A stretch of 64,000 nt of DNA, from the NCBI GenBank assembly GCA_000002435.2, contig CM018793.1. One strand, 5' to 3'. The notes below the pieces were generated by a model. That model saw only the letters and a list, made by a program, of their open reading frames with translations. It ran no database searches and had not been told where the DNA came from. Within the stretch, counting starts at the first letter, position 1. Every line of letters begins with the position of its first letter. The position numbers were made by a program, and so were the translations under genes. The stretch comes from Giardia intestinalis (taxonomy: Eukaryota). Below, piece by piece: positions 18,487-32,523 of this stretch.

Positions 18487-20105
18487 TCACGCCTTCCCCC
18501 TGCACACGAACCACCAGCAGAGGAAGCCCACGAGGCCCCCCACGACAGCGATGACAGCCACGGAGATCCCTGCTATGGCACCAGTACTGAGGCCGCTCTT
18601 GTTGACGCTTCCGCCGGTGTTGTCGCCAGTGCCGTCGCCCATCACGAAGCACATGAACGCACCGGTGGATGACACCGTGCACTGCCTGCACCCAGCGAGC
18701 CCCTCAGAGCACGGATTACACTTTGTCCCAGCACTCTGCGGTTTGTAATATCCAGTGCTGCATGTAGCACAGGCGTTAGCGTCGTTAGCAGCCGTGCATG
18801 TCTCGCAGCTAAGATGGCACCTTTTATTGGAACAATCGCCATTATCAGCCGTTAGACCACTGGCACATTTTGTACATTTTCCTCCCTGCACTGTAGTACA
18901 CACTTGCTTGCCAGGCTGTCTATCTGTCTGATAGCAACCGCCATCTTTGAGGAAGTAGTTATTTTCACATTGAGTGCATGCTCCATTACTCACCGTAGTG
19001 CAAAATCGTGTTCGCGTATTGGCCGCACAGTTGCCATCCAGTGGTGCCTGTTGAGTGTTCTTGCACTTTGAGCAGTATGCAGTTCCTCCTATCTGAGCCC
19101 ACACTCTGCGCATCCATCGTTTGTAGAACTCACGCTGCACTGGTTCATGCACGTGCCCCCATTGGCAGGAGTATCAGCATCTGTATACTGAAGCATCCTC
19201 CCAGCAGGACAAGCCGTACACTTATCAGCGCCCTCACCCTTGCACTCTACGCACGCATCGTTGCACTTCTTGCACTTTCTGTCAGTGTCATTTCCGTAGT
19301 AGCCCTTGAGGGTCGTGCAGTCAGATACGCATTGACTGGTTGGGGTGAGGTAGTACTCAGACAGACACTTTGTACAGACCTCCTTATCGGCACCTTCACT
19401 GGTGCACTCCAAACAGTGCTCTGTGTTACAGTTACTGATTGGTTGGCATTCAGTCGATTCAGTATTAGGTTGGAGTCCTTCGTTGCACTCGCACACTTGG
19501 CTATCCTGTCCGGTGGCCTTGGGGGTAGAGTTAGCAGGGCAACTAGCAACGCACGACTTTCTGTTGAGACCAAAGATGGTCTTCGTATCAGTCGTACACG
19601 TCTTACAAACCACTCCGTTGGCGCCTTTCTCACAAGTGGTGCAGTCAGTTGTTCCAGCCGACACACATGTATTGCACTCCTTTGCTTCTTCATCAACGTA
19701 GTGGGTTGCCGGACAACCAGCTGTGTCAACGCACGTGCCGGTTGTGGACTCGCCATCCTTCTTCAGGTACTTCTTGGTCCCAGACGTTTTACACAGGCTG
19801 CACTTCTGTTGCTCCTTGGCCACGCACACAGCGCAATTATCATCTGCACACGCGGTGCACTTCTTCTCGGTAGCGTCGATGAAGAAGCCCTCCTCATTAG
19901 TACACGCCTCTGCGCTAACACAGCTGGGTGCATCGCCAGCTTTAAAGTAGAATCCATCAACACACTCCCCACATATATTGTCCACCACACAGCTCTTGCA
20001 ATCACCCACAGAGCATGTCACACACCCACTACCACCCTTGTTGGGCTTCTTACCACTGTCACAGGCAGTACACACAGCGACAGTCATACCAGCTGTTGTT
20101 AGAGC
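18487..20105 (-). repeat. constant 3' block, copy in U8 (offset +18619, carries the 1-bp deletion at 19098..19100)
   Basis: ORFs 18642..18842, 19247..19756 are identical. The 19008..20102 plus-strand ORF is lengthened by the deletion. Confidence 0.85.
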
Positions 20106-21538
20106 TGTCGGGGCTGTGCACTGAGAGCAGCCATCTACTCCCACGTATGCCTTAGCGGTACCTTGAGGATCTACTAGTGTGCCTAGGGGGTTACTACATG
20201 CCAACACGGACTGCTGAGCATTGGATGCCCCTGGTACCAGGAAGTACTTATTATTCTCATTAACAGCGGTACAGACACCGTTGGCTGCTGTCTTGCACAT
20301 ATGTTGTCCAGGTACTGTATCAACCTTGTAACAACCTCCCATATACAAGAAGTAGTTGTTAGTGCATTGTGTACATACACCTTGATCACATTGATTATTT
20401 GCTTTAGCACTATTACACTTCCCATCTATAGGATACGTATTAGCTTCTCCACAGTATGAGCAATAATGATGCTCTACACCCTTATCATCAATCACTATTG
20501 CATCGCAGGCACCAGAAGTTCCTCCACAGGCAGTATCATCTTCACAGATCTTGGTGCATGTGACAGAGCCAGTACTGCCCTCCTTGCGATAGTTAGGCTT
20601 ACAGTCAGTGCACTTGAAAGCACCGTTGTTAGAGCAGACACTGCAGCCTTCGCGACCCTTATCGTCTACGCTATCGCATGGGACGCACTTCTTCCCCTGT
20701 TGATCTGTAGTAGTTACTAAGAAGTATCCAGTCTTGCAGGTTTCACACTTATTTGGATCACCAGCAACAGAGCATGTGGCACAGTTATCACCACACTTGT
20801 CTGTACATGTACTAGTACCACTATCAAAGAAGTATCCATCGAGACAGGCTGAGCAGGTTGGATTGTCACTTCCTGTTTTCGTACATGTCTTGCAGTTGGC
20901 CTTTCCTTCGTTACCAAGAGTTGAATCTGTCACATCACTACAAAGAGCACACGTTTTGTCCTCCTTCATAAATAAGGCCTCGTCAGCGCCCTCGCATCCT
21001 TCAAGCGTCTTCGCCACGCAGGTCGATGTCCCGTCGAGGGCCGTCCTGGGGGTCTTATTGGTCCCGCAGTTAGTGCACTTTGGCTTCCCCGTGGCCTTGT
21101 CGAAGGAGCATGCCGTGCACTCTGCGTGTATCGTACTACATGCCATGCACGTTCCAGACTCTGGGTCAGCATACTTATCATTACCACAGCTATCAGTACA
21201 TTGATTCCCATTGAGGTACTTCCCCTCTGGACACGATGTGCACTGGGTCGCCGATGTCTCACAGGTGGCACAGTTCCCTCGCATGGCTTACAAAGCTTGT
21301 TGTTTAGGAAGTACCCCTCTTGACAGGTATTACACGTGGCAGGTCCTGCATTCCCTGGTGCCGTACACTTGAGACAGTTGGCCACTCCCGTATATCCATT
21401 CGCTCCCTTGATATCAGAGCACAGGATGCACTCATTACCAGGGGTCACTGTCGTAGCCTTGTTCTGGAATATGTACTGGTTATCTACCTTACAAGCAGTG
21501 CACACTCCATCACTGGCTGCTGTGCATATCACACTCCA
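18487..21538 (-). pseudogene. VSP-family unit U8, long class. Reading frame broken by two 1-bp deletions, so either a pseudogene or a sequence error.
   Basis: Three tracker pieces: 18487..19152 (CRGKA frame), 19089..21284, 20966..21532. C3 run at 19098..19100 where U0, U3 and U5 have C4 (7438..7441 in U3). C3 run at 21276..21278 where U6 has C4 (~16357). Restoring both gives 3054 bp, the length of U3. 5' end W codon 21538..21536, TAG 21541..21539. Mosaic of U6-like 5' end, U1-like middle and the constant 3' block. Confidence 0.75.
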
Positions 21539-21599
21539 CTATCACACATTATCACACTATCACCCTCTATCACACATTGTACAGCATTCACTACCCAAG
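21539..21599 (-). repeat. inter-unit spacer U8/U9 (61 bp)
   Basis: Plus ctatcacacattatcacactatcaccctctatcacacattgtacagcattcactacccaag. Confidence 0.85.
21586..21592 (-). terminator. polyadenylation signal AGTGAAT of U9
   Basis: Plus attcact 21586..21592. Stop 21602..21600. Confidence 0.75.
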
Positions 21600-30380: not shown

Positions 30381-30429
30381 CTATCATACTATCACCCTAT
30401 CACACATTGTACAGCATTCACTACCTAAG
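30381..30429 (-). repeat. inter-unit spacer U12/U13 (49 bp)
   Basis: Plus ctatcatactatcaccctatcacacattgtacagcattcactacctaag. Confidence 0.85.
30416..30422 (-). terminator. polyadenylation signal AGTGAAT of U13
   Basis: Plus attcact 30416..30422 (cattcactacctaagtca). Stop 30432..30430. Confidence 0.8.
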
Positions 30430-32047
30430 TCACGCCTTCCCCCTGCACACGAACCACCACAAGAAGCCCACGAGGCCCCCCACGACAGCGATGACAGCCA
30501 CGGAGATCCCTGCTATGGCACCAGTACTGAGGCCGCTCTTGTTGACGCTTCCGCCGGTGTTGTCGCCAGTGCCGTCGCCCATCACGAAGCACATGAACGC
30601 ACCGGTGGATGACACCGTGCACTGCCTGCACCCAGCGAGCCCCTCAGAGCACGGATTACACTTTGTCCCAGCACTCTGCGGTTTGTAATATCCAGTGCTG
30701 CATGTAGCACAGGCGTTAGCGTCGTTAGCAGCCGTGCATGTCTCGCAGCTAAGATGGCACCTTTTATTGGAACAATCGCCATTATCAGCCGTTAGACCAC
30801 TGGCACATTTTGTACATTTTCCTCCCTGCACTGTAGTACACACTTGCTTGCCAGGCTGTCTATCTGTCTGATAGCAACCGCCATCTTTGAGGAAGTAGTT
30901 ATTTTCACATTGAGTGCATGCTCCATTACTCACCGTAGTGCAAAATCGTGTTCGCGTATTGGCCGCACAGTTGCCATCCAGTGGTGCCTGTTGAGTGTTC
31001 TTGCACTTTGAGCAGTATGCAGTTCCTCCTATCTGAGCCCCACACTCTGCGCATCCATCGTTTGTAGAACTCACGCTGCACTGGTTCATGCACGTGCCCC
31101 CATTGGCAGGAGTATCAGCATCTGTATACTGAAGCATCCTCCCAGCAGGACAAGCCGTACACTTATCAGCGCCCTCACCCTTGCACTCTACGCACGCATC
31201 GTTGCACTTCTTGCACTTTCTGTCAGTGTCATTTCCGTAGTAGCCCTTGAGGGTCGTGCAGTCAGATACGCATTGACTGGTTGGGGTGAGGTAGTACTCA
31301 GACAGACACTTTGTACAGACCTCCTTATCGGCACCTTCACTGGTGCACTCCAAACAGTGCTCTGTGTTACAGTTACTGATTGGTTGGCATTCAGTCGATT
31401 CAGTATTAGGTTGGAGTCCTTCGTTGCACTCGCACACTTGGCTATCCTGTCCGGTGGCCTTGGGGGTAGAGTTAGCAGGGCAACTAGCAACGCACGACTT
31501 TCTGTTGAGACCAAAGATGGTCTTCGTATCAGTCGTACACGTCTTACAAACCACTCCGTTGGCGCCTTTCTCACAAGTGGTGCAGTCAGTTGTTCCAGCC
31601 GACACACATGTATTGCACTCCTTTGCTTCTTCATCAACGTAGTGGGTTGCCGGACAACCAGCTGTGTCAACGCACGTGCCGGTTGTGGACTCGCCATCCT
31701 TCTTCAGGTACTTCTTGGTCCCAGACGTTTTACACAGGCTGCACTTCTGTTGCTCCTTGGCCACGCACACAGCGCAATTATCATCTGCACACGCGGTGCA
31801 CTTCTTCTCGGTAGCGTCGATGAAGAAGCCCTCCTCATTAGTACACGCCTCTGCGCTAACACAGCTGGGTGCATCGCCAGCTTTAAAGTAGAATCCATCA
31901 ACACACTCCCCACATATATTGTCCACCACACAGCTCTTGCAATCACCCACAGAGCATGTCACACACCCACTACCACCCTTGTTGGGCTTCTTACCACTGT
32001 CACAGGCAGTACACACAGCGGCAGCCATACCAACTGTTGTTAGAGCT
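30430..32047 (-). repeat. constant 3' block, copy in U13 (offset +30559). Its 5' end is the chimeric junction.
   Basis: ORFs 30582..30782, 31188..31697, 31273..32043 are identical to the U0 copy up to ~32045. Confidence 0.85.
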
Positions 32048-32523
32048 GCAACTGTTAGTGCACTGGGGCTTACTGACAGTCGCATTGTACTTGCATGCCG
32101 TGCAATCAGTTATTGTACTACATGCCATGCACGTTCCAGACTCTGGATCAGCATACTTATCATTACCACAGCTATCAGTACATTGATTCCCATTGAGGTA
32201 CTTCCCCTCTGGACACGATGTGCACTGGGTCGCCGATGTCTCACAGGTGGCACAGTTCCCCTCGCATGGCTTACAAAGCTTGTTGTTTAGGAAGTACCCC
32301 TCTTGACAGGTATTACACGTGGCAGGTCCTGCATTCCCTGGTGCCGTACACTTGAGACAGTGGCCACTCCCGTATATCCATTCGCTCCCTTGATATCAGA
32401 GCACAAGATGCACTCCCCACCAGGAGTCACCTTGTCTGCCCTGTTCTGGAATATGTACTTGTTATCTGTCTTACAAGCAGTGCACAGTCCATTACTGGCC
32501 TTTGTACATATCACACTCCACAT
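30430..32523 (-). pseudogene. VSP-family unit U13. Chimeric: long-class constant 3' block fused to a U6-like 5' module across an internal deletion, plus a 1-bp deletion and a 3-bp in-frame deletion in the TM region.
   Basis: Tracker ORF 30430..32085 (551 aa) ends ...[12 protein letters not shown], lacking the conserved Cys (ccaccacaagaagccc versus ccaccagcagaggaagccc). Junction ~32046..32052: left of it the sequence matches U3 ~8410..8440, right of it U6 ~16148 onward. T lost at ~32358 (gagacagtggcc versus gagacagttggcc). The 5' edge has an in-frame ATG 32523..32521 (MWSVICTKASNGLCTACK). TAG 32529..32527. Confidence 0.75.

Follow-up and report, generated by a model that had tools for sequence, protein, structure and literature searches.

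The 64,000-nucleotide stretch of DNA analysed here (the window) is, by its sequence, a linear array of cassettes for variant-specific surface proteins (VSPs) from Giardia intestinalis WB, and it is the origin of the small deletions that break the open reading frames (ORFs) of some of these cassettes that concerns us. Sequence occupies bases 1–33195 of the window, whilst the remainder (33196–64000; 30,805 bases by N count, up to the window end) is a run of Ns, i.e., an assembly gap of at least 30.8 kb with no strand assigned. Fourteen tails of the form W-F-(V/I)-C-R-G-K-A-stop, in which a transmembrane (TM) segment is followed by CRGKA, lie on the minus strand and have their stop codons at 2974, 4909, 6823, 9940, 11753, 14886, 16681, 18487, 21600, 23502, 26625, 28554, 30430 and 32580. 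With unit boundaries set from these CRGKA stops the array comprises 15 units (U0 to U14), head to tail and all on the minus strand, U0 being cut by the window start and U14 by the gap; U8, U11, U12 and U13 start at 18487, 26625, 28554 and 30430, respectively. Tandem Repeats Finder gave no result, its maximum period of 500 bp being far below the unit length. The best database matches of the translated units are Giardia VSPs, as are all the relatives found, and Pfam PF03302 scores 276 bits in U3, 134 in U1 and 77 in a fragment of U8, against a cut-off of 31.4, in keeping with the cysteine-rich ectodomain of VSPs and its many CXXC motifs.

Cassettes without a start

Ten of the units, namely the eight cassettes U0–U7 (1–18486, minus strand), which serve here as reference copies, and U9 and U10 (21600–26624, minus strand), which lie between the affected units, have in the frame map one ORF each, unbroken from the spacer to CRGKA*. 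A preliminary description of this DNA had called these ten units intact, which is right as far as their unbroken ORFs go, but not as regards complete genes, as none of them has a start codon or a signal peptide. The same is true of the whole array: ATG starts and signal peptides (of the 14–17 aa N-terminal type) are missing throughout, and the ORFs open immediately after a stop in the spacer. Each opens at ‘...ICTKA...’, and no ATG in frame is found nearby (e.g., 4837–4908, 9877–9939 and 21539–21599). The complete WB VSP P0025, which has a signal peptide, can be aligned to the units from its residue 106 onwards but not before, and every unit is without the first ~105 codons of a full-length VSP, start codon and signal peptide included. 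Because these two elements are missing in all of them, the units are pseudo-VSP cassettes and not functional VSP genes. The suggestion that the broken units might mark fresh pseudogenisation within a homogenising array was thus mis-framed, since all units had already lost their first ~105 codons.

The spacers, measured from the stop codon to the next ORF opening, are ~50–130 bp long, which is within the published range for linear arrays (0–241 bp). They begin with CTTGGGTAGTGAATGCTGTACAATG and go on with GTGATAG-like, stop-rich repeats, which vary in number, and the spacers of the clean units differ from one another by whole repeat units of 8–21 bp. Every stop is followed by TGA CTTGGG T-AGTGAA-TGC, where AGTGAA is a polyadenylation-like motif (AGTPuAA), which we take, from what is generally known of Giardia genes, to be the polyadenylation signal. 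The PyAatgTT initiator and a proper start are missing from the units: the spacers hold CAATGTG only, a remnant that resembles the VSP initiator CAATGTT and runs into the TGA/TAG of the repeats within five codons, leaving no usable start.

Deletions at the gap-side end of the array

Insertions and deletions were called by strict-flank comparison, family alignments, anchored k-mer bubbles and exact-match tiling; a sliding-window best-hit profile and BLAST with lenient gaps were dropped, since divergent mosaic segments give paired false indels with both. About 20 deletion events, no insertion and essentially no private substitution were found in U8 and U11–U14, and every difference that breaks a frame is a deletion. 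Some 18 of these ~20 losses fall within the 4.9 kb bordering on the N run (28291–33195), a density of ~4 per kb, whilst the two in U8 are 12–14 kb from the gap. In the 23.5 kb of U0–U7, U9 and U10 there is no frame-breaking indel, the indels of their ORFs being multiples of three and those of their spacers whole repeats, and the anchored k-mer analysis confines 1–2-bp indels to U8 and U11–U13. The anatomy of the array, the deletions, and their one-sided and clustered distribution are all observed directly in the window.

The preliminary description had listed eight 1-bp losses, and every one of them exists, 0–4 bp from where it had been placed (the approximate positions 28430, 29008, 29797 and 32358 are in fact 28431, 29011/29012, 29795 and 32361). 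The list was, however, incomplete, as further losses occur at 28457–28496, 30355, ~30362, 30397, 30460–30464, 32522 and 32527, and three times in U14. The emphasis that had been put on short homopolymers fits the U8 sites but not the gap-proximal cluster, roughly half of whose losses hit bases that are not repeated. Over the whole set, around half of the losses are in homopolymers, mostly 2-mers (C4 to C3 twice in U8, otherwise several 2–3-mers); those at 28431, 28485, 28496 and 29011 are examples of losses outside them.

U8 (18487–21599, minus strand), a long-type pseudo-VSP cassette recognised by the frame map, by tiling and by PF03302, runs through three frames by way of two 1-bp losses. 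The first −1 frameshift is at 19098–19100, where the plus strand has CCC and five sisters (U0, U3, U5, U10 and U13) have CCCC, and the second at 21276–21278, where it again has CCC and U6 and U13 have CCCC. Restoring the two Cs gives a single ORF of 1017 codons. Apart from these two sites, U8 is tiled from end to end by exact matches to U11, U3, U5, U1, U13, U6 and U4, which break exactly at the two losses, and so it has no private substitution at all over 3.1 kb.

U11 (26625–28553, minus strand) is a short-type cassette, as seen in its alignment to U1, U2 and U12. Its 3′ 1.67 kb has no indel relative to any of these three, and all of its losses (~6 bases) are in its 5′ 260 bp, at 28291, 28431, 28457–28460 (2 nt), 28485 and 28496. 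At 28291 it has G where U1 and U2 have GG by strict-flank comparison, whilst the loss at 28431 was seen by pairwise alignment. U12 (28554–30429, minus strand), another short-type cassette resolved by the frame map and alignments, has an ORF with three −1 shifts: at 28885–28886 it reads GG where U2 reads GGG (strict-flank comparison), at 29011/29012 a base is missing by pairwise alignment, and at 29795 TT has become T. No close sister exists at this last site, which is placed only via the WB protein XP_001706653.1: the protein has SDDSTKCILCSD, and U12, in two frames, SDDST / (K)CILCSD. A further five bases are lost in the 5′ 80 nt of U12, at 30355 (2 nt), ~30362 (1 nt) and 30397 (2 nt). Restoration of the three bases of its ORF turns U12 into a single reading frame of 609 codons. 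The earlier claim that three mutually offsetting deletions keep the length of U12 a multiple of three does not hold for its 1876 bp; what the three −1 shifts do is return the end of the ORF to its starting frame.

U13 (30430–32579, minus strand) is a chimeric unit of 2150 bp by its matches to U6 and to long-type units: 32054–32579 is a U6-type 5′ end and 30430–32048 the 3′ module of the long type (see below), with ~1 kb of central sequence missing and a frame offset of +1 at the junction between them (~32045–32060). This junction could be either a real product of unequal recombination or a mis-join near the gap. At 32361, U13 has T where U6 and U8 have TT (a −1 shift by strict-flank comparison), yet restoring this T leaves the unit split, because the junction offsets the frame by +1. 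The claim that all four broken units are disrupted by nothing but single-base losses is thus wrong for the chimeric U13, which stays out of frame. U13 also has three separate single-base losses within 6 nt at 30460–30464 (TTCCTCTGCTGG becoming TTCTTGTGG), which delete the Cys of the conserved membrane-proximal FLCWWF motif and keep the frame; two more losses, at 32522 and 32527, are in the spacer upstream of it. U14 (32580–33195, minus strand) is the 3′ end of a further cassette, 616 bp long and truncated by the gap, which passes through all three frames in comparison with the complete WB VSP XP_001705078.1, with three −1 shifts at ~33134, ~33090 and ~32935.

Sharing of segments between units

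The 3′ module of 1.6 kb is common to the six long units (U0, cut, at 1–1489, and further copies at 6823–8444, 11753–13374, 18487–20107, 23502–25107 and 30430–32048), with ~98.4–100% identity and exact runs of up to 1558 nt, whilst the 5′ halves of the same units differ. Such sharing amounts to strong segmental homogenisation. In an alignment of this module from U3, U5, U8, U10 and U13, the sole private difference of U8 is the deletion at 19100, and those of U13 are the cluster at 30460–30464 only. The same by-product ORFs, of 169 aa and 256 aa, recur in each copy of the module, in a different frame or on the opposite strand. On the plus strand, both GC skew (steadily, at about −0.09 to −0.20) and AT skew are negative over the whole array (1–33195); G and A are abundant on the coding strand, which agrees with the Gly/Thr/Cys/Lys-rich composition of VSPs.

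Comparison with annotated proteins

Read from the first ATG, the ORFs of U4 and U6 match exactly the G. lamblia ATCC 50803 (WB) proteins XP_001705783.1 and XP_001703933.1, respectively, and U0 equals XP_001705785.1 at all 843 of its 843 residues within the window. Proteins of the 2007 Sanger assembly thereby confirm U0, U4 and U6 exactly, the other units being collapsed or mosaic there. XP_001705784.1, for instance, differs by 2 aa from U11, by 4 from U1 and by 5 from U2, and looks like a consensus of several copies. Three consecutive accessions of 2007 are 887 aa (= U0), 427 aa (near U1/U2/U11) and 499 aa (= U4) long; if their numbering is positional, the order 887-427-499 aa stands against 887-427-427-887-499 in the window, and the Sanger assembly would have collapsed U1–U3. 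Being collapsed or mosaic versions, the 2007 proteins give no verdict on the frameshift sites.

Independent copies of the affected units did not turn up in the searches made. The frameshift-dependent ORFs of U8 and U13 have no exact match in a collection of 15 billion proteins, an exact look-up of the U9 ORF found no encoding contig, and none is on record for the complete VSP P0029 (XP_001705078.1). The conserved stop-spacer motif had no hits in a scan of JGI metagenome contigs. A homology search with the repaired U12 returned no protein above 72% identity, from which it follows that U12 is not annotated anywhere.

Relation to known systems

The kind of array, its silent start-less members, its position beside a gap, and the PacBio frameshift artefacts of the WB assembly are all already published. 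Linear arrays in WB, taken as two or more VSP units head to tail, have a mean intergenic distance of 60 bp (maximum 241 bp) and are sited at contig ends; their downstream members are without the initiator element and were proposed to be non-functional reservoirs, the longest array in the 2007 assembly having 10 genes (Adam et al. 2010, PMC2996952). In the reference that followed, 208 pseudo-VSPs are annotated (Xu et al. 2020, PMC7000408). The array described here shares with these linear arrays of VSPs and pseudo-VSPs (PMC2996952, PMC7000408) the head-to-tail units, the very short intergenic regions, the members without a start, the TM-CRGKA ends, the position by a gap and the near-identical segments. 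It differs from them in having at least 15 units, as opposed to the 10-gene maximum in the 2007 assembly, and in nothing else that is essential.

Arrays of tandem cassettes without signal peptides and with signs of segmental exchange are also known from Giardia muris (Xu et al. 2020, PMC7641422), where an array is defined as more than three VSP units. Those arrays are adjacent to telomeres, whereas the window shows no telomeric context, and their tails end in GCRGK, as opposed to the CRGKA found here, by which G. muris was ruled out as a match. The same paper draws the analogy with the silent VSG and MSG cassettes of Trypanosoma brucei and Pneumocystis (PMC7641422). In these the silent arrays likewise consist of incomplete antigen genes, which there act as donors for mosaic genes; the proteins, however, are unrelated to VSPs, and a donor role of the Giardia arrays is only hypothesised. 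VSP switching in G. intestinalis is itself considered an epigenetic process (background in Adam et al. 2010, PMC2996952).

Origin of the losses

In our view, the losses that break U8 and U11–U14 are probably errors of the deletion type that remained in a long-read (PacBio) consensus. We favour this interpretation, one of the two that the preliminary description had offered, because the losses are one-sided (deletions only), free of private substitutions and densest near the gap, and because of the way in which the WB reference was made. That assembly was produced from PacBio RS II reads with HGAP3 and polished with Quiver; its contigs were joined by N runs sized from an optical map, PBJelly closed gaps with raw PacBio reads, and its authors reported genes truncated by PacBio homopolymer frameshifts (PMC7000408). 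Correction was limited to 85 indels, each at a site where 10 or more Illumina reads gave support of 50% or higher (PMC7000408). Consensus errors of PacBio continuous long reads (CLR) resemble what we see in being deletions only, in C4 read as C3, in clustering at gaps, and in persisting in multi-copy sequence beyond the reach of short-read polishing. Moreover, U8 and U12 show no decay beyond the losses themselves, since once restored they are open over their whole 1017 and 609 codons.

Under this interpretation, the last ~5 kb before the gap would be poorly supported sequence of ~99.6% accuracy, which could be either a contig end or an extension of the gap edge by reads, whilst the two C4 to C3 sites of U8 would be classic homopolymer under-calls. 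Reads with the correct run would align better to near-identical sister copies and so never gather at the erroneous one, which would thus presumably receive no evidence for its correction, be it from long-read polishing or from short-read indel repair.

Several points do not sit easily with consensus error. Unlike typical CLR errors, about half of the gap-proximal losses are outside homopolymers, one loss is recurrent, and the dense zone contains two loss-free stretches of ~1.6 kb (26625–28290 in U11 and 30470–32045 in U13), which are at odds with uniformly poor coverage. The recurrent loss is that of the same A (GTGATAGTGG to GTGATGTGG) in two spacers: an identical 20-mer, GTGATGTGGAGTGTGATATG on the minus strand, is found at 28470–28489 and at 32507–32526, whilst five other spacers have GTGATAGTGGAGTGTGATATG, which speaks more for a variant that was inherited, or an error tied to the context, than for random error. 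The sites in U8 are far from the gap and in runs of four bases only, where Quiver at 200x errs rarely. Real frameshifts are, in addition, to be expected in unconstrained cassettes, and WB pseudo-VSPs split over three frames have been read as carrying evolutionary indels (preprint 10.1101/2022.03.07.483299). Finally, that the losses are absent from the real DNA, and which steps of the pipeline caused them, we infer from the pattern and not from reads. The same holds for the origin of the window in the PacBio assembly of Xu et al. 2020 (PMC7000408), which we infer from the match of strain and from the length of the array, since 15 units, against at most 10 genes in the arrays of the 2007 assembly, imply a long-read one.

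The losses would, on the other hand, be real if recent spontaneous frameshifts (by replication slippage or small deletions) had struck unselected silent cassettes after their last duplication or conversion. Nothing would purge such frameshifts from units that have all lost the start codon and the signal peptide, and pseudo-VSPs are numerous in the WB reference (208; PMC7000408), three-frame splits among them having been described (10.1101/2022.03.07.483299). A variant spread by duplication or conversion is expected to be shared, as the A loss is by two spacers, and the clean stretches of 1.6 kb could be recently converted tracts. We nevertheless consider this unlikely. Natural decay brings several substitutions for every indel, along with some insertions, whereas the ~20 deletions here come with neither private substitutions nor insertions. 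Ten equally unconstrained units (23.5 kb) carry none of them, and the cluster adjoins an assembly gap in a genome whose authors report the same artefact (PMC7000408).

Far less probable still is that the losses are real footprints of error-prone recombination. In this case, repair synthesis during repeated break-induced replication or long-tract gene conversion, at an end of the array that is unstable, would leave −1 shifts without substitutions, and the same instability would yield both the chimeric U13 and a region that cannot be assembled. Recombination is evidently frequent in this array, given units that are mosaics of exact sister segments and the junction in U13; the changes are clustered and deletions only, and break-induced replication strongly raises frameshift rates in yeast. 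However, the pattern fits a long-read consensus equally well, a mis-join close to the gap could account for the junction in U13, and the losses do not gather at mosaic breakpoints, save trivially in U8, where it is the deletion itself that breaks the match. Were this explanation true, the window would hold a direct sequence footprint of the shuffling and degradation of silent antigen cassettes in Giardia. We give equally little credence to a mixed origin, in which the array would truly vary in its spacer repeats and contain the U13 chimera, and only the ORF-breaking losses would be consensus errors. It would accommodate the variation of clean-unit spacers by whole 8–21-bp repeats, the A loss common to two spacers, and the fact that each ORF loss is private to one copy amid otherwise identical sequence. 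The 1–2-nt spacer losses are, however, found nowhere but in the gap-proximal zone in which the ORF losses lie as well, and only reads could separate such a mixture from consensus error throughout.

What has been found is chiefly a quality flag: should the window come from the WB reference, deletions probably went uncorrected in ~5 kb of it beside the gap and at the two U8 sites, and this sequence alone does not warrant calling these units ‘frameshifted’ or ‘split over three frames’. Should the losses be real, they would still amount to the ordinary decay of cassettes that were already silent, so the finding is an ordinary one either way. Nonetheless, the numbers of decayed and of open cassettes bear on the potential of such arrays as donors for new antigen genes, and errors of this kind would bias those counts.

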